A stretch of 38,358 nt of DNA from NCBI GenBank assembly GCA_044225505.1, contig JBGAIN010000074.1, forward strand, positions 1-38,358. The letters run 5' to 3'. Each line of letters opens with the position of its first letter. The stretch's first letter is position 1. The stretch is from Limisphaerales bacterium (GTDB lineage Bacteria > Verrucomicrobiota > Verrucomicrobiia > Limisphaerales > SIBE01). The translations under genes and the position numbers were made by a program. The notes under the pieces are model-generated. The model saw only the letters and a list, made by a program, of their open reading frames with translations, did not search any database and was not told the origin of the DNA. Of this stretch, positions 22,607 through 38,358 are shown in pieces.

Positions 22607-24805
22607 TTAATTCTTCAATTCGACATCTCGAGCCAAGGGTTCCATTCGCAAGCGGAAAAAGCGTTGTCCCTCCGTCACGGCGACTGGGGCCAACAAACGG
22701 GGCGTTTGGCCTCGGGAACGAAGCGCGAACGGGTTGCCCACATCGTTCCACGGTTCGCGCGGGTTGGACGAACTTTGGAGGACATAGTTGAAGCCCCTCA
22801 TGCCCCCGACCAACCGCAAGGTCCATCCGCTGTAATCCTGCAAGTCGCTCAAGACGATGCTGGGGGCGACCTGCACCGGTAGTATCGTGGGATCCCCAAT
22901 CGCCTTTACCGTCGCCAACAGGGGCACAACCAGAAAGCTCCGGAGCGGAGGGGTCCCGTCATCGACAACGCGGAATGTGACATAATAGCCGGGCGCGTCG
23001 GCCTCGTCGACGGTGGGCGTCCACGAAAACGTCCGAGTCGGAGCGTCGAAACGCGCTGTCGCTGGCGCTGTGTTCGTGTCCATCGAATAGGTGAGGGTTT
23101 GACCCGAGTCCGGGTCCGTCGCCTTAACCACAAATTCGAGCGGCTCAAGCGCGTGCGCAATTTGGGGTGCCACGGGATCAAATGCAGGTCGGGAGTTGCC
23201 AAGGCGCGGCAAAATGCGCACATCATCGATAAACCAGCCGGGCCAGTCGTCGTCGACATACGCCGCAAAGTAAAATCGGAATTGAACCGTCTTTCCGCCA
23301 TATTTGCTCAGCGACAGCAATGCCGTTGTCCAACCGCCCGAATCGCCGTTATAAACAATCGAGAGTGCTTCTTCGACTCCATCCTCGAGACGAATCCACA
23401 CTTGCCCGGAGTGGCTCGGGTGAATCCGAAACCAATGCTGAAAATTCAGTCGCGGATTCGCTGTCGCTTCCGGAAGTCGGAATCGCGGACTGAGCAGCGA
23501 CGAACTCATCGGTGTCACCGGAAACCCCTCGCCGTTTAGGGAAACGGCAGCGCAATTCGTTCCTGTGATGGCCCCACCCGGCCCGATAGTCGGCTTCCCA
23601 ACAGACCAATTCCCGCGATCCACACTCCAGTCGCCCCAACCTCCCTCGAAGCTTTCATCACCGGCCTGAAGATCGAGTGGTGGCAGGGTCTCAATCTGGA
23701 CATCATCGATAAACCACCCGGGCCAATCACTGTCCACATAAGCCGTGAACAGGAATTTGAACTGAACCTTTTGACCTTGATACTTAGCGAGAGAGAGGCT
23801 CACGGGCGACCATCCAGGCGCGCTCCCGCTATACTGAACTGATAATGGCTCCTCCGAACCGTCCGCCAACCGGATCCAAACCTGCCCGTAGTGACTCGGA
23901 TGAATCCGGAACCACTGCCAAAAGCGAAGTCGCGGACCCTCGGTCACTGACGGCAGTTGCATGGGTGGACTCACCAGCGATGAACTAAACGGACTGATGG
24001 GAAAGCCGTCGCCGTTCAGGGCGACCGCGGCACAGTTGGTCCCGCTCCAGGCTGCCATTGGCCCAATGGCAGGGCTTCCAACATACCAGTTGCCTCTCTC
24101 GGCACTCCAATCCCCCCACCCTCCTTCAAAATCGTCGAAGCCGCCGAATAGCTGGCCTCCAGCCACCACCTCGACCTCGTCGATGAACCAGCCAGGCCAA
24201 ACGGGATCGACGTAGTTTGCAAAATGAAACCCGATTTGAACTCGTTGCCCGCCCCACTTGGTCAAGGACACGCTCGCCGGCGTCCATCCGATCCCTACCG
24301 TACTGTATTTTAGCGGGATCGCCTCCTCGACTCCCCCCTGAGTGCGGACCGTGATCTCTCCGTAGTGACTCGGATGAATCTTGAACCAATGCCAAAAGCG
24401 AAGTCTCGGCTCTTCCGACGCTGCGGGTAACCAAATCGGCGGACTTACGAGGGAAGAACTGCCCACGCTCGCCTCATCGTGACGAAGCCCAGTAGCGGCG
24501 CAACGTTTGCCCGCAAACGCGTTCGTCGGACCGACCTCCGGCGTCCCAAACGTCCAAACCGCCTTCGTGATTTCCCAACGCAGGCTGACCATGTCGCTCT
24601 CGAAGCCCTCGTGCCAGCAGGTATACTGATAGGGAGTGCGTGTGCCCTGGCAAATCCCGGGGAAGAGAAGAAGGAAAGCTGGCAATAGCCAGAAAAGGCA
24701 CCGGGGTCGGACGCAAAACCGCCAGCAGCAAACTCGCTGTGGAAATTTCCCAGGTCGGGTCGAACAGGTTCCGCAGAATGAGATCGTCATAAACAAATCC
24801 CGCAC
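22607..24805 (-). CDS. Secreted protein: three tandem ~150-aa jelly-roll-like modules, a cadherin/Ig-like domain and a C-terminal FFRL-type tail
   Basis: Signal-like LFWLLPAFLLLFPGICQG; three repeats ending WPGWFIDxV; ATDPDSGQTLTYS..FSWTP..VTFRVVDDGTP; YVLQSSSN..W..QRFFRLR. Start uncertain. Confidence 0.8.
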   Translation of the reverse strand: MRDLFMTISFCGTCSTRPGKFPQRVCCWRFCVRPRCLFWLLPAFLLLFPGICQGTRTPYQYTCWHEGFESDMVSLRWEITKAVWTFGTPEVGPTNAFAGKRCAATGLRHDEASVGSSSLVSPPIWLPAASEEPRLRFWHWFKIHPSHYGEITVRTQGGVEEAIPLKYSTVGIGWTPASVSLTKWGGQRVQIGFHFANYVDPVWPGWFIDEVEVVAGGQLFGGFDDFEGGWGDWSAERGNWYVGSPAIGPMAAWSGTNCAAVALNGDGFPISPFSSSLVSPPMQLPSVTEGPRLRFWQWFRIHPSHYGQVWIRLADGSEEPLSVQYSGSAPGWSPVSLSLAKYQGQKVQFKFLFTAYVDSDWPGWFIDDVQIETLPPLDLQAGDESFEGGWGDWSVDRGNWSVGKPTIGPGGAITGTNCAAVSLNGEGFPVTPMSSSLLSPRFRLPEATANPRLNFQHWFRIHPSHSGQVWIRLEDGVEEALSIVYNGDSGGWTTALLSLSKYGGKTVQFRFYFAAYVDDDWPGWFIDDVRILPRLGNSRPAFDPVAPQIAHALEPLEFVVKATDPDSGQTLTYSMDTNTAPATARFDAPTRTFSWTPTVDEADAPGYYVTFRVVDDGTPPLRSFLVVPLLATVKAIGDPTILPVQVAPSIVLSDLQDYSGWTLRLVGGMRGFNYVLQSSSNPREPWNDVGNPFALRSRGQTPRLLAPVAVTEGQRFFRLRMEPLARDVELKN
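23213..24617 (-). repeat. Intragenic triple domain repeat
   Basis: Each unit has FE(G/S), G.P..GP..A..G..CAA, SSSL.SP, PRL.F..WF.IHPSH.G, SL.K.GG..V, WPGWFID.V. Units lie at about 24617-24169, 24139-23693 and 23659-23213. Confidence 0.9.
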
Positions 24806-27489: not shown

Positions 27490-27861
27490 ACGCTTCTACT
27501 CTCGGTTAGTCGACTGGCTCTCGCACCCCATAGCTTGTTTCCGTTCGCTTCGAAGGTAACGTCGTTTAAATGGTCCCGCCGCAACGCGCGAACCAAGGCC
27601 TGGAAACTGGAAACCAAGTTGCGCTTTTGGACTAGGTGTTCCGCTTAGTCGCAATTGGGGTGGAGCGCAGTCGACCGCAGCGAAGCCGAGCGTTAATCTG
27701 GTCGACGAAGAATATGCCACGGTCAGCAAAATCATCTGCGATTGCGCGCCCATCCCGATCGACGCCAGCGTGCGTGTCTCCGAGGTGTTGGTCCTATGTG
27801 AAGGGCTGTCGTCAGGCCGGGCGCCATCAGAATATTGGCGAACTTGCCAGGGACGTCGGTG
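27490..27861 (+). pseudogene. Decayed gene remnant, possibly tandem TrkA-C (RCK_C) domains
   Basis: Fragments across frames and stops: STLG*/VDWLSHP/*LVSVRFEGNVV*MVPPQRANQGLETGNQVALLD* and VNLVDEEYATVSKIICDCAPIPIDASVRVSEVLVL. The latter has coding-like GC-ending codons but no start. Confidence 0.3.
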
Positions 27862-27935
27862 ATCGCCGCATTGGTCAGTCGCCGAATTTGGTTTAGATTT
27901 AGGGTGTCACAATCCAAGCACACGCTTGGCATCAA

Positions 27936-27991
27936 GGGTCCGAGAGGTCTGATCTCTTGGAGGTAAACCGGGATGGTCGGGCCGCCATTCC
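27936..27991 (+). ncRNA. nhaA-I-like (Li+-I class) riboswitch candidate, copy A
   Basis: GGGT-CCGAGAG/gtctgat/CTCTTGG-AGGTAAACC-GGGATGG/TCGGGCCG/CCATTCC in the 5' leader of the TPS/TPP gene; second copy at 36897-36951. Confidence 0.8.
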
Positions 27992-28144
27992 ACAGCAGGA
28001 AATCTCAAATCCGGTTTGCCGAAGTTTTGGGCGGACAACACCCGTCCATCCTACGCACAGTCAGGGGTGAAACGCGGCCTCTTCGCGCAGCCATGTTCTG
28101 CGGTCTGTCTAGAAAAGCGGAGCGGCGAAGCCGGTGCGTATCCT

Positions 28145-30484
28145 ATGATGAAAAATGACAACGACACGTTCCAGCCCCAGCTTCAAGGTGATCCGTATTA
28201 TGCGAAGGCGGTTCTGGAACCTTCCGAAATTCCCCCTACGGCGACGCGCTTGGTGGTCGTTTCCAATCGTCTGCCATTCACTGCGTCAGTAAAGTCCGGG
28301 GAACCGATCTATACCATCAGTCCCGGAGGATTGACCACCGGCTTGTGGAGCTATCTCGACCGTCGCGCCCATAATACAGGCCAGGGCGAATATCTGTGGG
28401 TTGGCTGGCCCGGCGCAACGGTCGCTCCTGAATATCAGGCGGCCGTGCAGGAGCATGGGCAGAAGAACTTCCGCGCCGCCCCGGTCTTCTTGTCTGAGGA
28501 AAGCATGGAGCGGTTCTACCTCGGCTTCTGCAACCGGACGATTTGGCCGCTATTTCACTATTTTCCATCCCTCGTCCGCTACGAGGAAGAGGATTGGGAA
28601 GAATACAAACGGACCAACCAGGAGTTTTGCGATGCTCTGGTCAAATTCCTGCGCCCCACAGACATGGTCTGGGTGCACGATTACCAACTGATGCTGCTCC
28701 CCCGACTGCTCCACGAGCGATTTCCGGAGATGCCAATCGGATTCTTCCTTCATATCCCGTTTCCGTCGTTCGAGGTTTTTCGACTGCTTCCGTCCAGTTG
28801 GCGGGCCGAGATTCTGGAAGGCATATTGGGAGCAAGCCTGATCGGTTTTCACACCCACGATTACACGCGTCATTTTCTGGGCTGCGTCCTGAGGACGCTC
28901 GGGCATGAACACCAACTCGGCCGGCTCACCGTCCGAGAACGGGTCATTCAGGTGGATACCTTTCCTATGGGTATCGATTACGAAAAGTTTGACCAAGCAG
29001 CGCGGAGCACGCAAATAGAACAGCGGGTAAGTCTGTTGCGGGAGCAGAGCGCAGTACCGAAAGTCATCTTCTCTTTGGATCGGCTTGATTACACCAAAGG
29101 TCTCCTGAACCGTCTCCGCGGCTATGAGCTCTTCTTGGAACGAAATCCACACTGGCATGGCAAGGTGACTTTCGTGCTGTCGGTGGCACCCTCTCGCACC
29201 GGAGTCGACAGCTATCGAGCGATGCATCAGGAGATCGAGCAGACAGTCGGCCGTATCGGCGGCACTTATGGCAAGGTCAACTGGACGCCTCTGATCTACC
29301 AATACCGGAATCTTTCGTTCGATGAGATCGTAGCGATGTACCGGCTCTGCCACGTCGCCCTGATCACCCCACTCAGAGATGGAATGAATCTGGTCGCCAA
29401 GGAATTTGTCGCCTCGCGGATTGACCAAACCGGAGTGCTCATCCTCAGCGAGATGGCCGGGGCCGCCAAGGAGATGGCGGAGGCGATTATCACTAGTCCC
29501 GTCCATCGGGGCGAACTTGCTCAGGCCCTGGAACAAGCCTTGGCGTTGCCGCTCGATGAACAAATCCGACGAAATCAGCTAATGCAGCAACGGCTTCGCC
29601 GTTACGACGTGAATCGTTGGGCCGACGATTTCCTGCAGGCACTGCTGGCAACGCAAAAGACAGAAGCGGCCCAGCGCGCCCGTTCACTCACCGGCAAGAC
29701 CCACGCTCGATTGCTACAGGAGTATCGAGCAGCGTCCGCTCGGGCCCTGTTGCTCGATTATGATGGGAGCCTGGTTCCGTTCGTTGGCGATCCGAAACAG
29801 GCTCTCCCGGATCCTGAGTTATTGGGATTGCTGTCGGGCCTGTCCTCCGACCCGGCCAACAATGTGATCATTGTCAGCGGAAGATCTCGGGCTGATCTCG
29901 AGAAATGGTTTGGGACTGTTCCGGTCGGACTGGTCGCTGAACACGGCGTTTGGCTGCGTCCCAAACCTGGCGATTGGCGGTTGCTGAAGAGTTTGACAAA
30001 CAAGTGGATGGCCCAGGTCCGTCCGATTCTTCAACTCTACGTGGATCGTCTACCGGGGGCGTTATTGGAGGAAAAGGAGTATTCGCTGGCCTGGCATTAT
30101 CGGCGGGCCGATCCAGAACAGGCTTCGCATCGCGCCAAAGAGCTTCTGGACGACTTGGCTGATTATACCAGGAACATCGACGTACAAGTTCTGGAAGGAG
30201 ACAAGGTCATCGAGATTCGGCATACCGGCGTCACAAAAGGAACAGCCGCTCTCGAATGGCTGGCCAGCAGCTCTGTCGATTTCATCCTGGCGACCGGCGA
30301 CGATTGGACCGATGAAGACCTCTTTCGTGCGCTGCCTTCGACAGCCTTCTCTATCCGTGTGGGTTTGGCGAGGACGGCCGCGCGTTTCCACTTGGGATCC
30401 TATTCAGCCGTCCGCCAACTTCTGCGTGAGCTAAACGACGCTTCTTGCAGCCAAAATTCGGCAAATCCGTCGATACTCCTATGA
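28145..30484 (+). CDS. Bifunctional trehalose-6-phosphate synthase/phosphatase (OtsA-OtsB fusion)
   Basis: [65 protein letters not shown] motifs [23 protein letters not shown]. Confidence 0.96.
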
Positions 30485-30804
30485 ACTTGAAGTCTCGAAC
30501 CAAGAACACCGTGCATTTGGTAGCGTACGACAAAGACAGACAGCAAATTATCGACGAGTTCCTGCCCATTTCTACATTCTACGATGACACGCATCCCGTT
30601 CTCGATGAGCCAAACTACCGGAGGAACCACGGAATCGTCCGACTGACGGGTTCCGTCCATGATACCAAAGGCGTTATCGTTCAGGAGTTCGAAGTCAGCT
30701 TTAATGCGTCGGGATTCTGCGAGTGTGACGCGGCGAAGTTCGCGGATGGCTCGATTCTCGGTGATTGGGAACGCCTCCACACGAGGGCGGCTTCGCCGAA
30801 CTAG
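30481..30804 (+). CDS. Hypothetical protein (107 aa) translationally coupled to TPS/TPP
   Basis: ATGA start/stop overlap at 30481-30484; globular, beta-rich-looking sequence. Confidence 0.7.
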   Translation: MNLKSRTKNTVHLVAYDKDRQQIIDEFLPISTFYDDTHPVLDEPNYRRNHGIVRLTGSVHDTKGVIVQEFEVSFNASGFCECDAAKFADGSILGDWERLHTRAASPN

Positions 30805-30993
30805 CATCAGCGTTGCGGTGGCGCGGCACAAATAGACAACCTCCGAACGCTGGAGATTCAAAGAATAGGGATTGAGTGAGCGGCGTCGGGGGTAACGTGA
30901 CACCTGGGTTAGCTACCTTCTGCAACTCCATCAAGAGAATGTCCTGCTCGGCGGCAAAAGGTCTCAGGTTGAGCGACTTGAGAAATCGGGAGG

Positions 30994-31557
30994 TTACGGA
31001 ATCGACGGCGTTCTCACGGTCCGGGTCGGTATCATGCGGAGACGACTGTTACTTGTTGTCGTGCCCAGAGAACCAGGAAGGGACGCGCTTCTCGCGTTGG
31101 TTTTGAGACTCCCAGGGCCGATCGTGGGCACGGGCTTCACCCCATTCGCCCAGAAGTTCATCACCAACTCTTCGCCAGCGTGACGAACCCGGACTGTTTT
31201 CGCCACGAGATCAATGTCCAAGACTTCCAACGTGTCTTTTCCTTCGCCCACCCCAAGACAGTAGTAGTGGGGCAATCGTCCCGGACTTGGCTTGCTCATA
31301 AAATAGGCCCGTTCCCGTCCAATAGAGGTGATCCCGGTCAGGAGGATTTGATCTTGCGGAGGCTTGGCCACGAAGTTGGTTTTTGGAGGAGGGAGTGGCC
31401 GGAGCCCAAATGGGTTTCTTTCGTAGATTACGGAGTAGTCGCGCGTTTTGGGAACATGCTCACTGCTTCCCGAGCTAACGAAATGTGCTGCGTGGGACAG
31501 CATCAAGGAGCAACTTATCGTTAGTAACGAACAGGACAACTTTGCTTGATCAGTCAT
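30994..31557 (-). CDS. Hypothetical exported protein (GspC/PilP-like pattern), probably with a disrupted 3' end
   Basis: Signal-like N-terminus; Y..I.ERNPFGLRP.PPP, ILLTGITSIG..RAYF, LEVLDID....VRV. A protein-like continuation follows the stop in shifted frames. Confidence 0.6.
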   Translation of the reverse strand: MTDQAKLSCSLLTISCSLMLSHAAHFVSSGSSEHVPKTRDYSVIYERNPFGLRPLPPPKTNFVAKPPQDQILLTGITSIGRERAYFMSKPSPGRLPHYYCLGVGEGKDTLEVLDIDLVAKTVRVRHAGEELVMNFWANGVKPVPTIGPGSLKTNARSASLPGSLGTTTSNSRLRMIPTRTVRTPSIP

Positions 31558-31838
31558 TTTCGGTCTTAGGGCGAGACATCCGAGTGGCGGTTGCTAACCT
31601 TAGCCATTCTCATGTCGGACGGAGAGAGTGCAAGCTGGGACGCCGACGCCCCGTGCCTGCACTCTTGCTGATGCTGCTCTGACCGGTCGAGGTCAGCTCC
31701 AGCCCAAGTTCGCACCCGCTGCAATCTACGGAGAGAGCCGTGCGAAGGTAATTGGATGGGTTGCTATGTTGATCTCAGTGGAAAGACTAGGTGGGATGTG
31801 TTGCTTGCATGCCGTAGCCCTTTGTCCAAAATAAGCTG

Positions 31839-33575
31839 GTGCGTTGGAATTACGTTAGAGAGAGTCTCCGCCAGGCCTCACCCCGTACGCGGCAGATCGC
31901 CCAAACGACGATCATCGGGTTGGCCGCCGGCGGGGCGGCTGTCGCCTTCCAAAGTGGAATTAACGTGCTTTACCGCATCACGTTGGTCCAACTATCCCGA
32001 CAGAGTACGTCGGTCTTTCTTGTCGGAAGCCTCGCGACGATTCTTCTGAGCGCATTGGCCGCGGGATTTCTCCTGAACTCCTTTTGCCGGGAGGCATCGG
32101 GCAGTGGCATACCGCAGTTGAAACTAGCGTTTTGGAAAGACTTTGGCGTCGTTCCATTTCGCGCGGTTTGGGTAAAATTCGTTGGAGGCATTCTCAGCGT
32201 CGGAGGCGGCAGTAGTCTGGGCCGGGAAGGACCCAGCGTGCATATTGCCGGAGGACTCGCCTCGAACCTGGCAGGCCTTTTCGGTCAAGCCAAGCAGAAC
32301 CGTCGTTTGGCTTCGGCGGCGGGAGCAGCGGCTGGCCTGGCCGCCGCATTCAATACGCCCTTGGCAGCTGTGACCTTTGTCCTGGAAGAGATTATTGAGG
32401 ACTTGAACAGCCGGTTTCTGGGAAGCGTACTGCTCGCGGCCGTTATCGGTGCGCTGGTGGCCCATGGCCTTCTGGGTCCGCAACCCGCCTTCAGCCTCGA
32501 GCCGATAGAAACACCTTCGTGGCGCGCGTATCTGCTCGTCCCGATCGTTGCTGGCTTATCCGCGTTGGCGGGCGGCGTGTTCCAACGTTGGACGTTGCGC
32601 TTGAGGGCTGCGCGGGGTCGAGTGGAGATCGTCCCTGTTTGGGGCCGCCCAGCGCTGGGCGCTATCCTGACCTGGATTCTGGGTGCCGCGATTTTCCTAT
32701 GGTGTGGGCGCCTTGGGGTATTTAGCCTGGGCTATGATGATCTATCCGATGCGCTCAACAACCGGATGCTTTGGTCCACCGCGGCCGTCCTACTGATGGC
32801 AAAGTTGATGGCGACTGTGTTGTGCTATGGCTTTGGTAGCGCGGGCGGGATTTTCTCGCCGACACTTTTCTTTGGAGGAATGTGCGGTGTCGTTGTCAGC
32901 GGGGTGGCCCAATTCTCTCTCGCTCTTAATCAAGCCGATCACATGACCCTGGCGGTCGTGGGTATGAGCGCGTGTCTCGGAGCGGTGGTCAGGGCGCCCG
33001 TTACCGGAATACTGATCGTCTTTGAAATGACTCATGAGTTCGCATTAGTTCCCGCTTTGATGCTTGGAGCTATCGTCAGCCAGGCTATTGCTCACCGTTT
33101 GACTGGACACAATTTTTATGAGGCCGTGCTCCGCCAGGACGGACATATCCTGGAGCATGTGATCCCACCACGGGACTTGTATGGTTGGCAACAGCTCCCG
33201 GTCTCGGCGGTCGCGAACTTCCACCCCGTCGTGGCGACGGACCTAAGCCATTCGGGACTGATGGAGCTTCTCAACAATCATCCCTTTCAACGCTTTCCCG
33301 TCTCGTTGAACGATCGCGTCAGCGGCGTCCTAACTCGCGCCGAAGCGCAAGACGCTTTGAACCAACGGCGTTTGCCACGTCTCGAGGCAGCGAGCACCTG
33401 CCCGCCGACGCGGAGAGTCCGCGAGTTGCAGGCTACCTTGGTGGAATCTACGACCCTATTTGTGATTGTGACCGCTGAGCAGAACGGTCGCGTCCTCGGC
33501 GTCTTAACCCTTCACGATCTGCTTCGTGCCGAATTGGCTCTTGGTCGAACGGCGGATAGTTCCTTGGACGGATAG
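31839..33575 (+). CDS. ClC family Cl-/H+ antiporter with C-terminal CBS pair
   Basis: GSGIP, GREGP (gating Glu), AAAFNTPL..V.FVLEE (proton Glu), GGIFSP, NFYE; CBS motifs FQRFPV and GVLTLHDLL. Confidence 0.93.
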   Translation: MRWNYVRESLRQASPRTRQIAQTTIIGLAAGGAAVAFQSGINVLYRITLVQLSRQSTSVFLVGSLATILLSALAAGFLLNSFCREASGSGIPQLKLAFWKDFGVVPFRAVWVKFVGGILSVGGGSSLGREGPSVHIAGGLASNLAGLFGQAKQNRRLASAAGAAAGLAAAFNTPLAAVTFVLEEIIEDLNSRFLGSVLLAAVIGALVAHGLLGPQPAFSLEPIETPSWRAYLLVPIVAGLSALAGGVFQRWTLRLRAARGRVEIVPVWGRPALGAILTWILGAAIFLWCGRLGVFSLGYDDLSDALNNRMLWSTAAVLLMAKLMATVLCYGFGSAGGIFSPTLFFGGMCGVVVSGVAQFSLALNQADHMTLAVVGMSACLGAVVRAPVTGILIVFEMTHEFALVPALMLGAIVSQAIAHRLTGHNFYEAVLRQDGHILEHVIPPRDLYGWQQLPVSAVANFHPVVATDLSHSGLMELLNNHPFQRFPVSLNDRVSGVLTRAEAQDALNQRRLPRLEAASTCPPTRRVRELQATLVESTTLFVIVTAEQNGRVLGVLTLHDLLRAELALGRTADSSLDG

Positions 33576-33629
33576 ACCATAGAATTGCCGCCGCCGATCC
33601 CAATCGCAGGTGGCCGGAACTCGGTTCGT

Positions 33630-34631
33630 CTACTCTCCTAGAGGGCGTATGAGGGTTGTCTCCTCTACGCTCCAAAGCTTCACGGTATGGTCTGTGCTGC
33701 CCGAGACGAGCATTCTGCCGTCAGGTGAGAACGCGACAGAATTCACGAGGTTCTTATGAGCCTTCCACCAAGTGCGGAGCGCACCGTTTGATGGATTCCA
33801 AAGCTTGATACAATTGTCCCAGCCGCCGGAGGCGAGAAGCGAGCCATCGGGTGAAAAGGTCGCGCAATAAACCAGCCGTGAATGAGTGTCGATAGCCCGA
33901 ATTGGGCTCAGGTGTGGCGCTTGCCAAAGTCGAATATATCCATCATAGCCGGCGGAAACCAGAGTTCGGCCGTCTGGCGAGAACTTCACGGAACTGACGT
34001 CGCTGCGGTGCGCTCGGAGCGCCCGCACGACGCTGCCATCGTCGATGCGCCAAATCTTTACAAAACCGTCCTGGCCTGCCGATGCCAAATAGGTTCCATC
34101 GGGCGAAAAAGCGATGCTTAGAATTCCGCCTTCATGGGCCAACCATCTTCTCAACGGTACCCCCTTTGAATCGTCCCAGATCGTGATGACATTGTCCGAA
34201 GTGCCCCAGGCCAGAAGCTGGTCCTTGGGTGAAAATGCTACGGTGTTGACCCTTTTCTCCCGGGCGTCCAACACTGCGATCGGAGAGCTCTCGTTCGGTT
34301 GCCAGATTCTCACCGTCCCATCGTATCCTCCGGAAACGAGTCGATCTCCGTACGGCGAGAAGGCGATAGCAATCACGGCGCCCTTGTGCCCATGCAGCGT
34401 CTGGATAAGTCTTCCGCTTGCGACCTCCCATATCTTAACTGTCTTGTCGCGGCTCGCTGAGGCAGCCAGCTTCCCGTCCGCAGAGAACGCTACCGCCCGC
34501 ACACCGGATTTATGAGCAGAGGTGGTTCGTCTCCCGCCATCGGCGCCTTGCGCGACTCCCTGGAGGAGCACGCAGCACACCAAAACCATAGAATACCAGT
34601 GCCAACGAACTTGTCTTTGATGGTTAAACAT
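33630..34631 (-). CDS. WD40-repeat beta-propeller protein with signal-like N-terminus
   Basis: Seven H..V..VAFSPDG..L.S.S.D.TVKIW-type repeats; MVLVCCVLLQGVAQG. Start uncertain (34685/34631/34589). Confidence 0.9.
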   Translation of the reverse strand: MFNHQRQVRWHWYSMVLVCCVLLQGVAQGADGGRRTTSAHKSGVRAVAFSADGKLAASASRDKTVKIWEVASGRLIQTLHGHKGAVIAIAFSPYGDRLVSGGYDGTVRIWQPNESSPIAVLDAREKRVNTVAFSPKDQLLAWGTSDNVITIWDDSKGVPLRRWLAHEGGILSIAFSPDGTYLASAGQDGFVKIWRIDDGSVVRALRAHRSDVSSVKFSPDGRTLVSAGYDGYIRLWQAPHLSPIRAIDTHSRLVYCATFSPDGSLLASGGWDNCIKLWNPSNGALRTWWKAHKNLVNSVAFSPDGRMLVSGSTDHTVKLWSVEETTLIRPLGE

Positions 34632-34668
34632 AAAGCGAAATGGGTCGTTCACATCGGATGGTCGACTC

Positions 34669-35391
34669 CTACCTCTCTCCTCCATAAGCTTCGACCCACA
34701 AAACGGCGTGCCGTGTTAGTTCAGGTCCTGTTCTTAGTCTGAGTTTCCGTTTGATACCAGCCCGGTGCGCCTCGACGGTTTTCACGCTCATGCTTAAAGC
34801 TCGGGAAATCTCGGCCGTTTCCCGAGCCTGACCAATGAGAGTGAACACTTCCAACTCGCGGTCGGTCAACTGTTCAACGGGCGAAACAATTCGCGGTTGC
34901 CGCGGGCTCGCCAAACTGTTTAGAAGCCGCGTTGATGCATCCTCGCTTAGGTAGATTTGTCCGCGAAGCACACAACGAAGCGCATCGATGAGTTGCCGGC
35001 CCTCCGCGTGTTTCGAAATGTAACCTCGGCCACCGGCTCTGAGAACTCGTTCCGCAAATACAGACTCATCGTGCATGGAAAGCACGAGCACCGGCAAGTT
35101 TGGCCGGAGCGCACGAATATCTTTAATTAGCTCCAGCCCATTCCGGCCCGGAAGATTGATGTCTGCCAGGACTAGGTGCGGGTCCAGTCGTTCTATCGCC
35201 GCAAGTGCTTGACGTGCATCAGCCGCTTCACCGCACACCGCGATGTCCGCCTGGGCGTTGATCTGAGCCGCTAAGCCTTCTCGCAGAACCGTGTGGTCGT
35301 CGACGATGAGAATTCTCCTTCGCCCGGATTCGGCGGTTATGCACTTCGGGTCTGGGCTGACGGTTTGTCTAGCGAAGGGTTTCAGTTTCAT
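34669..35391 (-). CDS. NarL/FixJ-family response regulator (REC + LuxR HTH)
   Basis: ILIVDDH..LREGL, LADINLPG.NGLEL, VLSMHD, GYISK, LTDRELEVF, SVKTVEAHR. Confidence 0.95.
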   Translation of the reverse strand: MKLKPFARQTVSPDPKCITAESGRRRILIVDDHTVLREGLAAQINAQADIAVCGEAADARQALAAIERLDPHLVLADINLPGRNGLELIKDIRALRPNLPVLVLSMHDESVFAERVLRAGGRGYISKHAEGRQLIDALRCVLRGQIYLSEDASTRLLNSLASPRQPRIVSPVEQLTDRELEVFTLIGQARETAEISRALSMSVKTVEAHRAGIKRKLRLRTGPELTRHAVLWVEAYGGER

Positions 35392-36862
35392 GGCAGGTTT
35401 CGCTCGAACAGGGCGCCACGCATGTGACTTTTGTGCCTTTGCCCTTTGGCCGCGGCCCGACAGCCAGTCGACCCCGGACGAGGTCTGCCCTGTATTGCAT
35501 AATCCTCAGTCCCAATCCACTCCGGCTTGGGGAAGGAGTTACAAAACCCTTGCCATCATCCTCAACCGCGAGAGAAAGCAGCCCCTTCTCAAACTTCAAT
35601 CGAATAACGATCTTCTTCGCGCGGGCGTGCTTGAGCGCATTATTCACCGCTTCCTGCGCAATGCGATAAAAGTGACCAGCGAGAACGGAATCTTCCACCC
35701 GGATGGGCCTTTCGCTTTGAAAATTGCAGCAAACACCGAAGACGTCGCTCGTTTGTGCGGCCAACTCACCGAGCGCATCCGTCAGCCCCTCGGGTTCTAA
35801 GCGAATTGGCGAGAGTCCCCTCGCAAGTCGGCGCGTCTGCTCAATGGCGTTGCGCACCAGGACAAAGATGCGTTCGACTTCACCAGCTTCGGGCGAAGCA
35901 CGCGCTGTAAGCCTTTCGTGTACGACATTGGTGAGGTAAGCAATCCCTCCAAGCTGTTGACCAAGGCCATCGTGCAATTCCTGTGCGAAGCTCCGGCGCT
36001 CTCGGTCACTCAGCTCAAGAACTTCACGCTCCAGTCGCTTTCGTTGGGAGAGGTCTCGCACAAACCAACGGGAGTGAACCAACCGGCCTTTCTCCCAGAA
36101 TGCATTGGCGTCGATCATGACGGGCCGAATCTCCTGACGAGTCGTCACGAGCTCCAGACTCAAGTTCCGTAAGCTCTGCCGCCCCGCCAAACGCGTGAGA
36201 AGCTCATGGATAAAAGCTGCCTCCGCATGAAATCTCCTGAGCGGCCAGCCCAGACATTGCTTTGGCCGGCATTGCAGGAGGCTCAGCAACGCGCGATTAG
36301 CGCGGAGTATCGTCCCCTCTGGAGAAATCCACATCAACCCCAGCGATGCTTCTTCGAAAAGATCGGTCAACTCTCGTTCACTGCGCTGCAACGCCTCGCG
36401 CATTTGCCGTTGCTCAGTCATGTCCCGGGCAATTGTCGAGACTCCAACCAGCCTCCCGGTGGCGTCTTTGATTGGGGAGAGGGCGAGGGAAACAGGGAAA
36501 ACAGTTCGATCTCTTCGCACGCGCTCCGTCTCGAAATGCTGGACAGTCTCTCCAGAGCGAATGCGTTCGGCCAAGTGACGGTATTCCTCTCGCCGACCTG
36601 GAGGGAGGAGCACGCGGCAGGAGCGGCCAACGATTTCATCGGCCGAATAGCCGAACATCCGCCTCGCAGCCTGATTCCACGTGGTTACGGTGCCGTCGAA
36701 GGTCCGACTGAAAATCGCGTCGCTGGAGAACTCGACGATCGCGGCCAATTGGCTTGTTCGATCCGGGACGGCGGTCCTATTGTTAATGGGACTGGGTGAA
36801 AGGCGTGGCCGGTCGCTCGTGACTGTTGTGCCCTGACGTTGTTGGAGCTGAAGCGAGCGCAT
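35369..36862 (-). CDS. Cytoplasmic PAS-PAS sensor histidine kinase (HisKA_3 type)
   Basis: AIVEFSSDAI..WNQAA.RMFGYSADEIVG (PAS1), LFEEASLG (PAS2), AQELHDGLGQQL, YRIAQEAVNNALKHA, DDGKGF, GLGLRIM. No TM helix; overlaps the regulator start by 23 bp. Confidence 0.93.
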   Translation of the reverse strand: MRSLQLQQRQGTTVTSDRPRLSPSPINNRTAVPDRTSQLAAIVEFSSDAIFSRTFDGTVTTWNQAARRMFGYSADEIVGRSCRVLLPPGRREEYRHLAERIRSGETVQHFETERVRRDRTVFPVSLALSPIKDATGRLVGVSTIARDMTEQRQMREALQRSERELTDLFEEASLGLMWISPEGTILRANRALLSLLQCRPKQCLGWPLRRFHAEAAFIHELLTRLAGRQSLRNLSLELVTTRQEIRPVMIDANAFWEKGRLVHSRWFVRDLSQRKRLEREVLELSDRERRSFAQELHDGLGQQLGGIAYLTNVVHERLTARASPEAGEVERIFVLVRNAIEQTRRLARGLSPIRLEPEGLTDALGELAAQTSDVFGVCCNFQSERPIRVEDSVLAGHFYRIAQEAVNNALKHARAKKIVIRLKFEKGLLSLAVEDDGKGFVTPSPSRSGLGLRIMQYRADLVRGRLAVGPRPKGKGTKVTCVAPCSSETCHETETLR

Positions 36863-36896
36863 GCTATCGGACAAATGTATTCTCAAAATCCATTCT

Positions 36897-36951
36897 CGTG
36901 GAATGGCGGCCCGACCATTCACGTTACCTCCGAGAGACATCTCTCGGACCC
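36897..36951 (-). ncRNA. nhaA-I-like (Li+-I class) riboswitch candidate, copy B
   Basis: GGGT-CCGAGAG/atgt/CTCTCGG-AGGTAA-CGTGAATGG/TCGGGCCG/CCATTCCACG, ending about 35 nt before the kinase ATG at 36862. Confidence 0.8.
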
Positions 36952-37178
36952 TTCCGCTTCCAGCGCTCTCAGAGGATGGAAAGCACTTGGCGAGGGCCCC
37001 CACGAACGCCAAGTGGTCGACTGGCCCGCGCCTCCCCTTTCGAGCAAAGCCACACGAAGCCTAGTTTGGACGTATTTCACTCGGCTCGTATTGAAAGGTT
37101 TACCATTTTTTCTCCTTGGCCCGTGCTGGGATTGGCCGAGCATCCGGCCACCCTGATCGAGATCTGGGCTTTGAGGCC

Positions 37179-38357
37179 TCAGATGGATGCGCTCTCGTCG
37201 AGTCGTGACTCTGGTGTGATCGGGTGATTCAACACGGATCCCTGTCTTCCGCCGAGTTTGCGTCCTCCGACGGTAATGTTCGTTGCCAACGGCAATGAGA
37301 TCACAGGTTCAACCAGATCGTTGTCTTTCCTCACCGCTTCGCGGAGGTCGTCCAGAAGACTTGGGATCGCTGATTCGACCCGATTCCAGTTTGGGATCAG
37401 CGGTGACCAGAGCGGATCTTTCTGGAAAGCGTCTGTGGCAGATCGGATCGCGCGTACAAAAGTAGCCACGGCATTTTCCTCCTCATGGCTGGCGTAGTTC
37501 AGCCCGTTCAATGCAGCATCAGCGGCGTAGAACCGCAACGTGTCTTCGGCCTGTCGGCTATAAGCGCTGAGCAGCGTATCAAACAAACCCGCATCAAGTT
37601 TAATTCCTTCGGCAGCCATCCTGCGAAAGAACGATTTTACGATGTCGCAGGCCATCTTGTTCAAACCTTTGTCCGGATCGCGGGGTGAGAGTTCCTGGTG
37701 CTTATGGTCGTAGTTTCCGCACAACTCCGATTGACAGATCGCACGTGGCGCCGCGTTTCGAACGATTTCGGCCAGCATACCCACTTCAAGAGCCCAGTCG
37801 TAAGGAATCCGGATCCGTCGCACCAGGTCGGTATCCAATGCCATTTCGCCTGCCAGAGGGTAACGGAACGTGTCCATGTAAACCAGGAACGGGTGCAAAC
37901 CGAGGATGCTCTTGAGCGCGCGAATAAGAGGAGTGATGAAAAGGCGCATCACCCGTCCGTTGAGCCGGTCAGTCACCCGCGCGTAATAGCCCTTGCAAAA
38001 ATCAAATCCGAGCGACGGGTGTGCGACCGGGTAGCAAAGTCGAGCCAGCAATTCACGGTCGTACGTGATAATATCGCAATCGTGCAGAGCAACCATCCGG
38101 GCCTTCTCGCTCGCCAGCACGTAGCCAAGGCATGTCCACACGTTTCGTCCTTTGCCGCCTGGGCCGGCGGAAAGTTCCGCTTCCTCGAGCCGCTTGAAGA
38201 CGGCCTGCATGCGAGGCCCGTCATTCCACAGGAGAATGGGTTTCTGGGGTAACTGAGCAAAAAAATGCCGTGCCTTGCGCCATTGCCGAACGCCGGTCGC
38301 GCCGTCGATTCCGACCACAATTTGGCTCAAATAGGGGATGTGTCGAAGTTCACGCAG
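37179..38357 (-). CDS. Glucosyl-3-phosphoglycerate synthase-like glycosyltransferase (GpgS type), 5' end beyond the window
   Basis: Frame open to the right edge (LRELRHIPYLSQIVVGID); GKGRNVW, ALHDCDI, FCKGYYAR, GRV.RL..TPL, FRYPLAGE, DWALEVG, YDHKHQ. Confidence 0.85.
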   Translation of the reverse strand: MRELRHIPYLSQIVVGIDGATGVRQWRKARHFFAQLPQKPILLWNDGPRMQAVFKRLEEAELSAGPGGKGRNVWTCLGYVLASEKARMVALHDCDIITYDRELLARLCYPVAHPSLGFDFCKGYYARVTDRLNGRVMRLFITPLIRALKSILGLHPFLVYMDTFRYPLAGEMALDTDLVRRIRIPYDWALEVGMLAEIVRNAAPRAICQSELCGNYDHKHQELSPRDPDKGLNKMACDIVKSFFRRMAAEGIKLDAGLFDTLLSAYSRQAEDTLRFYAADAALNGLNYASHEEENAVATFVRAIRSATDAFQKDPLWSPLIPNWNRVESAIPSLLDDLREAVRKDNDLVEPVISLPLATNITVGGRKLGGRQGSVLNHPITPESRLDESASI

Positions 38358-38358
38358 G

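Follow-up and report, generated by a model that had tools for sequence, protein, structure and literature searches.

Among riboswitches that sense alkali cations, the closest described relatives of the two elements considered here (copies A and B of one structured RNA motif, in a 38,358-nt contig of a Limisphaerales bacterium, JBGAIN010000074.1, the whole of which was analysed and is called the window) are the Li+-I riboswitches of the nhaA-I class (RF03057; PMC5737381, PMC9646797), the Na+-II variant of Desulfobulbus propionicus (PMC9646797), and the Na+-I riboswitches of the DUF1646 class (RF03071; PMC9337991). White et al. (2022, PMC9646797) report a Li+ response for three nhaA-linked RNAs, with a KD of 20-30 mM for the tested Li+-I RNAs, while seawater holds ~25 uM Li+; a tested Li+-I RNA discriminates against K+, Rb+ and Cs+ and has little affinity for NH4+. 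A terminator-bearing variant with a C at position 54 responds to Na+ and represents Na+-II; changing this base to U (mutant M4, C54U) yields an RNA that responds to Li+ and NH4+ as well as Na+. All tested class members are ON switches. The same authors, whose 944 published gene associations include otsA (16), glycosyl transferase (5), citrate transporter (5) and mscS (3), suggest that otsA-linked RNAs may be Na+ variants acting in the osmotic response, and offer Li+ control of trehalose as one option. Rare signalling targets of nhaA-I have also been noted in a study whose supplements may already list the present lineage (Weinberg 2017, PMC5737381), and tandem Li+-I arrangements are known (PMC9481103). 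A literature search, with subscription journals mostly outside its reach, found no paper on the structure of the class or on this lineage's use of it. What follows is a modest extension of a known riboswitch family, whose class and link with trehalose are already published.

Two nhaA-I aptamers and their relatives

Both elements are nhaA-I-class riboswitch aptamers. A scan of the window with Rfam 15 returns exactly two matches, both to RF03057, both spanning model positions 1-55 of 55 and both above the gathering score of 37 bits (Table 1), with no other family over its cut-off; copy B is the best-scoring copy, and its conserved bases are all intact. A sequence-only reading had placed the two copies at these positions and named the nhaA-I class, and was right on both counts. 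Two occurrences of the 14-base core TGGTCGGGCCGCCA were counted in the window; 100 shuffles averaged 0.03, and no single shuffle reached two.

With the Li+-I RNAs, the two copies share a two-hairpin consensus over the cut-off, a U at position 54 (the first base of the P2 loop, as fixed from the M4 template; PMC9646797) and the lack of a strong terminator, and otsA, glycosyl transferase, citrate transporter and mscS are already among the published associations. They differ in the first pair of P1 (C-G here, G-C in the three tested Li+-I RNAs), in a continuous P2 helix and an extra 5' hairpin, in osmolyte-dominated targets with no NhaA (the nhaA link being a tendency, not a rule), and in their host, Proteobacteria alone being named as hosts in the consulted text of PMC9646797. 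Na+-II has the same GGGUCC...GGAGGU at the base of P1, and M4 shares both the P1 base and the P2 loop with the present copies; an alternative hairpin predicted for copy B also has the topology of the Na+-II terminator. However, natural Na+-II combines C54 with a strong terminator overlapping the 3' strand of P2, whereas the present copies have U54 and no terminator that passes, and it was reported only from Deltaproteobacteria and before genes of unknown function. Since the present copies combine U54 with a Na+-II-like C-G pair at the P1 base, M4 is, by analogy, their closest tested counterpart. Na+-I RNAs have a similar architecture, are ON switches, and form a multi-copy regulon controlling Na+ transport and some osmoprotectant genes (PMC9337991), but carry other conserved bases at the P1 base and in the P2 loop; RF03071 has no match in the genome (the positive control, Lactococcus lactis, was matched), nor any at E up to 10 on four nhaA-I loci. 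The first P1 pair was rejected as a general Na+/Li+ determinant, two tested Na+-I RNAs having G-C (PMC9337991).

The variation between copies A and B, first read as pairing-preserving and thus as a sign of selection on RNA structure, consists of only two one-sided changes (G.U/G-C in P1 and G.U/A-U in P2), with no two-sided change. The two copies are probably recent paralogues, because their 82% identity lies at the 98th percentile of 1596 aptamer pairs, and the pair alone is weak evidence for structural selection, because its changes are one-sided and its members unusually alike. The idea itself is borne out by 57 aptamers of the order (of 60 matches, two below cut-off and one apparent duplicate having been left out), 56 of them distinct and all from relatives that are not independent: 98.1% of the cells of their alignment are paired, against 82.8% after shuffling, and two-sided changes number 133 against 34, a level reached in none of 500 shuffles and far above slid controls. 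These changes fall in 10 of the 13 pairs, and both helices covary. Only GGU, AGG and the P2 loop are fixed, so that the AGGTAA once taken as invariant shrinks to AGG, followed by T, A or C in 20, 19 and 17 of 56 aptamers, respectively. The GGU/GCC pseudoknot can pair in 56 of the 57, and because neither side varies, the comparison neither supports nor refutes it.

RF03057 was found in 23 of 61 relatives and in 35 of 151 genomes of the order (about a quarter), whereas elsewhere in the phylum 5 of 150 genomes have it. Of 151 genomes from the order to which a Xenophilus record belongs, 5 match it; the class to which a Devosia record belongs, likewise sampled with 151 genomes, gave no match over the cut-off. 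Among metagenome loci, 44 of 120 passed a structural filter, and all 44 then passed Rfam. A loose pattern scan of a genome-contig collection gave chance matches: one of its 120 loci passed the structural filter and then failed Rfam. Two tandem pairs were seen, one at L161 (G135:C197; ~290 nt apart, 5' of an MscS-like gene), the other at L224 (86 nt apart). Three aptamers from another family of the class (L315-L317) have A-U in place of the second G-C pair of P2. The sole C54 aptamer among the 56 of the order (L171, G002:C5:1915-1969), with a Na+-II-type loop, comes from the same genus as the window's genome and lies directly 5' of gpgS.

Within the genome to which the window belongs (G000, with contigs C18, C42 and C253; 9.04 Mb, 95% complete, 4.7% contamination), the genome-wide scan recovered four whole copies, all in sense and just 5' of a gene, a distribution unlike that of an orientation-independent repeat. 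The two further copies precede a second otsAB and a gene for a CitMHS_2 transporter, a putative cation antiporter whose atlas neighbours are named sodium:proton antiporter. The idea of a local cation regulon lacking an antiporter target thus has to be widened: the group of copies is genome-wide, and a putative antiporter stands among its targets on another contig. Contig C42, in addition, opens with the last 11 model positions of RF03057 ahead of a third otsAB. This is counted as a probable fifth copy, because the chance expectation for a 9-base match at any contig start is 0.008, and because the C42 leader aligns with the C18 leader at a score of 47, above the maximum of 28 in 300 shuffles. 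The third otsAB is followed by a paralogue of the window's histidine kinase (63% identical), a regulator, a USP-like protein and a TreZ-type hydrolase-like protein, the last two labels being read from sequence, without a profile scan. The module at G000:C42:1-8620 (L334) is a second copy of the otsAB/kinase/regulator group, possibly, given the 4.7% contamination, from a second strain. Neither the 5' end of gpgS nor the 5' half of the C42 aptamer was found on other contigs of the genome. In run X12, a 1942-nt contig is identical to the window over 36917-38358 and continues for a further 500 nt past its end. It also joins 27957-27988, on the opposite strand, and its loose end resembles the 5' half of a further aptamer, which suggests a probable sixth copy, 5' of gpgS and in sense. 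The first 65 nt of C18 (G000:C18:1-65) are a contig-start repeat found at more than 20 places of the genome, many of them contig ends, and are probably a mobile-element end or a REP-like repeat. The taxa of the atlas neighbours of one window protein (phylum known for 2 and 37 members) make Verrucomicrobiota the probable phylum of the genome.

Genes behind the aptamers

Copy A lies ~155 nt 5' of otsAB, whose start codon would be ATG 28145 or 28148. The end of copy B lies 39 nt from the likely start codon of a histidine kinase gene (ATG 36862, placed after homologues of 502-548 aa with 59-63% identity), the end of which is overlapped by a response regulator gene. On the same strand, copy B stands ~230 nt behind a gene for a GpgS-like protein, which scores 295 bits (E = 8e-88) against NCBIfam GpgS_Meth, under the equivalog cut-off of 700, and is 69-83% identical to proteins behind 16 aptamers of relatives. 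The early description of both copies as sense elements 5' of genes therefore holds, with the restriction that copy B probably sits within an operon, after the GpgS-like gene.

Table 1. Coordinates, strand and supporting evidence of the features discussed (window positions)
Feature	Position	Strand	Evidence or remark
Weak sigma-70 promoter candidate, copy A	27871..27899	+	TTGGTC, 17 nt, TAGATT; 7 of 12
Extra 5' hairpin (P0), copy A	27914..27929	+	6 nt 5' of aptamer; z = -2.65
Copy A, nhaA-I aptamer	27936..27991	+	RF03057 match 27936-27990, 45.6 bits; GGGU, P1, AGG linker, P2 with loop UCGGGCCG
Candidate anti-aptamer strand, copy A	28011..28020	+	Predicted folds; pairs with linker 27962-27971, covering AGG
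otsAB, bifunctional trehalose-6-phosphate synthase/phosphatase	28145..30484	+	NCBIfam PRK14501, 979 bits (cut-off 634); Pfam GT20 and Trehalose_PPase
NarL/LuxR-type response regulator	34669..35391	-	Pfam Response_reg and GerE
Cytoplasmic PAS-PAS-HisKA_3 histidine kinase	35369..36862	-	Pfam
Alternative 6-bp hairpin, copy B	36885..36906	-	Predicted; takes 3' strand of P2, then AUUUU
Copy B, nhaA-I aptamer	36898..36951	-	RF03057 match 36901-36951, 55.0 bits
GpgS-like glucosyl-3-phosphoglycerate synthase	37179..38357	-	5' end cut by contig end

The targets of the 57 aptamers, each taken by hand as the first gene on the same strand that could be recognised in the sequence fetched, are GpgS-like proteins (17, the commonest nhaA-I target in the order), MscS (7, one of them followed by sucrose-synthesis-like genes), PF07399 (7), CitMHS_2 (5), OtsAB (4), PAS kinases (2), USP (2), a sugar ABC system (1), and other or unknown products (12). 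Trehalose and glucosylglycerate are compatible solutes, and MscS is an osmotic release valve. Osmolyte synthesis or release accounts for 28 of the 57, against 24 of 944 in the published table (PMC9646797), and putative antiporters (PF07399 and CitMHS_2) for 12 of the 57. NhaA in the sense of PF06965 was found behind none of these aptamers, nor in the 95% complete genome (its control matched in 3 of 14); PF07399 was not found in the genome either, in a search whose control matched nowhere. PF06965 stands behind 6 of 25 aptamers whose P1 begins with G and behind none of 82 in which it begins with a pyrimidine, in a comparison that joins the order set, 44 metagenome loci and five matches from the Xenophilus order, that is confounded by lineage, and in which some metagenome loci hold less than 300 nt downstream.

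Two protein families recur beside these targets. A small membrane-like family (L016:1712-2116 and 13 related ORFs) is, within the order, often first behind the aptamer, before gpgS or CitMHS_2; it has no Pfam or NCBIfam match, and no member was found in G000. A second unannotated family, of ~110-120 aa, stands behind the aptamer in 10 loci of both G-type and pyrimidine-type (L211, L221, L236, L256, L262, L282, L301, L307, L313 and L314). In the window itself, a CLC-family chloride channel/antiporter with a CBS domain (31839-33575, +) lies between the two riboswitch units, with no Rfam match 5' of it, and large secreted-looking proteins with repeated MAM-like domains are found near both otsAB copies (22607-24805, -, in the window, and G000:C18:2831-9380).

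Leader anatomy and candidate expression platforms

Across the order, 22 of 55 leaders have a TTGAC whose first base lies 61-75 nt 5' of the aptamer, and no other 15-nt bin collects more than 4. The 35 nt 5' of GGGU fold better than their shuffles (z < -1.64) in 37 of 55 relatives; the same holds for 5 of 55 control windows and for 3 of the 24 G-type aptamers. Because of this position of TTGAC and these folding statistics, a leader made of a promoter, a short 5' hairpin and the aptamer is suggested, the hairpin (P0) lying outside the Rfam model, which begins at GGGU. Copy A would conform to this layout, with a P0 hairpin and a weak promoter candidate that falls below the scan threshold and lies as far from the aptamer as TTGAC does in those 22 relatives. 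Copy B has neither a 5' hairpin (z = -0.76) nor a clear promoter; transcripts reading through from gpgS probably cover it. A 9-bp inverted repeat (CACTTGGCG / CGCCAAGTG, 37032-37001, -), followed by CTTTCC, stands between gpgS and copy B, ~30 nt 5' of the latter, and is possibly a weak terminator or a processing site. Promoter and terminator scans found nothing in sense at either copy. RNA-library contigs cover 27732-28235 and 27911-28076 (from copy A into otsAB) as well as 36805-36964 (from copy B into the start of the kinase gene), at a depth of 2-5 that may stem from DNA.

As for the step from aptamer to gene, predicted folds offer a different candidate for each copy. Downstream of copy A, a strand that could pair with the AGG linker has similar counterparts in the C253 and C18 leaders. 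Copy B would form an alternative hairpin, present in the lowest-energy fold from 110 nt on and missed by the terminator scan, which with its AUUUU may act as a weak terminator-like platform. Against shuffles, the anti-aptamer pairing is not significant for A (z = -1.42) or B (z = -0.94), and the general test is weak as well (z < -1.64 in 8 of 57 aptamers, mean z = -0.42). A motif search recovered no 16S 3' end. A few relatives (for example L006, L154 and L012) have more distinct terminators behind the aptamer. Just 3' of P2, a small hairpin flanked by a GAA...TTCGGA-like sequence, and able to pair with the 3' end of P2, is shared by L015-L018, L020, L027, L030, L031, L155, L173 and L178, and may be a conserved expression platform.

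The cation sensed and the rival explanations

To which cation, then, would these aptamers answer in the cell? We somewhat favour, as slightly more probable than all other accounts together, a salt-stress ON regulon that answers mainly to Na+ in vivo, because its targets, the missing NhaA and the behaviour of M4, taken together, point in this direction. The nhaA-I aptamers would act as ON switches of a regulon in which a GpgS-like gene, a two-component pair and a putative cation antiporter join as many as three otsAB genes. According to the position statistics, transcription would start from a promoter ~30 nt upstream, giving a leader in which a short hairpin precedes the aptamer; with no ligand bound, downstream strands would pair with the AGG linker (copy A) or, in copy B, with the 3' strand of P2, so that expression stays low, while a rise in cytoplasmic alkali cation would stabilise the aptamer and let expression proceed, with ribosome access, Rho or weak termination as candidate routes from fold change to gene. 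The cation would most likely be Na+, and the aptamer may also accept Li+. All 56 distinct aptamers of the order share with the Na+-II RNA a pyrimidine-purine pair at the start of P1. By sequence, the copies carry the features of Li+-I and lack those of Na+-II (C54 and the terminator), and it is by their targets that they look like a salt-stress switch.

Several observations weigh against this Na+-driven regulon. C54, the published Na+-II determinant, is absent from both copies, U54 being present in all four whole copies of the genome and in 55 of 56 aptamers of the order; the terminator scan found no intrinsic terminator behind either copy, unlike the definition of Na+-II; and the argument from the P1 base is weak, as the split follows lineage and two tested Na+-I RNAs have G-C. 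PF07399, the target of 7 of the 57 aptamers, is counted as NhaA by White et al. (PMC9646797), and a G-C-type aptamer (L215) also stands 5' of a GpgS-like gene. The partial copy on C42 scores 10.2 bits, with E = 9.1. In folding, the start region is not clearly opened in the aptamer state, and for copy B the value moves in the wrong direction (0.47 to 0.37), so that start-region accessibility, computed for copy A in a window two bases off, gives no support to simple translational ON control.

U54 in all copies, the lack of a terminator as in most Li+-I RNAs, the option of Li+ control of trehalose raised by White et al. (PMC9646797) and the putative antiporters among the targets would suit ordinary Li+-I riboswitches that sense toxic Li+ and raise trehalose, glucosylglycerate and an antiporter as a lithium defence; this is an unlikely contender, since it has to accommodate the large share of osmolyte or MscS targets compared with the published table, the failure to find PF06965 NhaA either in the genome or behind the 57 aptamers, and a KD far above the Li+ concentration of seawater. 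Another signal in vivo, be it a different cation (NH4+ or K+), overall ionic strength or an alkaline pH that makes itself felt through cation entry, would agree with the broad response of M4, with targets that are general osmotic-stress genes and with the extra 5' hairpin of the lineage, which could alter behaviour. It appears improbable, given the selectivity of the tested Li+-I RNA against K+, Rb+, Cs+ and, less strictly, NH4+ (PMC9646797), while glucosylglycerate is tied to nitrogen shortage (PMC5381378), a poor fit with an ON switch for NH4+.

The role of copy B calls for separate consideration, as it could be a duplicated or stranded aptamer without control over the kinase. Its unusual likeness to copy A and its lack of a 5' hairpin and clear promoter speak for such an origin, as do one of the two close kinase orthologues (in G008), which has no aptamer within the 11.7 kb fetched, and the C42 paralogue, which has none directly before it. 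Against it stand the top score of copy B, its intact conserved bases, its closeness to the likely start codon and its competing hairpin; in G011, moreover, an aptamer precedes the other orthologue with one gene in between, and on C42 the paralogue comes after otsAB, all of which leaves the stranded copy with a rather small chance, and copy B as a candidate control element of the kinase gene. A dispersed DNA repeat or terminator without riboswitch function, a thought encouraged by several similar copies per genome, is largely refuted and now very remote: both helices covary around invariant unpaired bases, the copies lie in sense before functionally related genes, and TTGAC is concentrated at one distance upstream.

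A bolder version of the Na+-driven regulon, which we regard as tentative and on balance doubtful, is that the order possesses its own nhaA-I subtype, defined by the 5' hairpin, a pyrimidine-purine P1 base (the opening pair of P1 in all 56 distinct aptamers of the order), U54 and mostly no terminator, which senses Na+ and serves as a master osmotic switch in up to six copies per genome. If this were true, a single operon would be under two such aptamers in series, one 5' of gpgS and one 5' of the two-component system, and an RNA ion sensor would control a layer of protein signalling; C54 would not be the sole route from Li+ to Na+ specificity, and many 'lithium' riboswitches would be sodium sensors. 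The value of these loci is that of a test set for a point left open by White et al. (2022), namely whether Li+ or Na+ is sensed before osmotic-stress genes, as they offer natural U54 aptamers that resemble the broad-specificity M4 and occur several times per genome before osmolyte genes. Should they prove to sense Na+, less biology would be left to lithium sensing, and salt-stress genes of a little-studied lineage would gain a marker.

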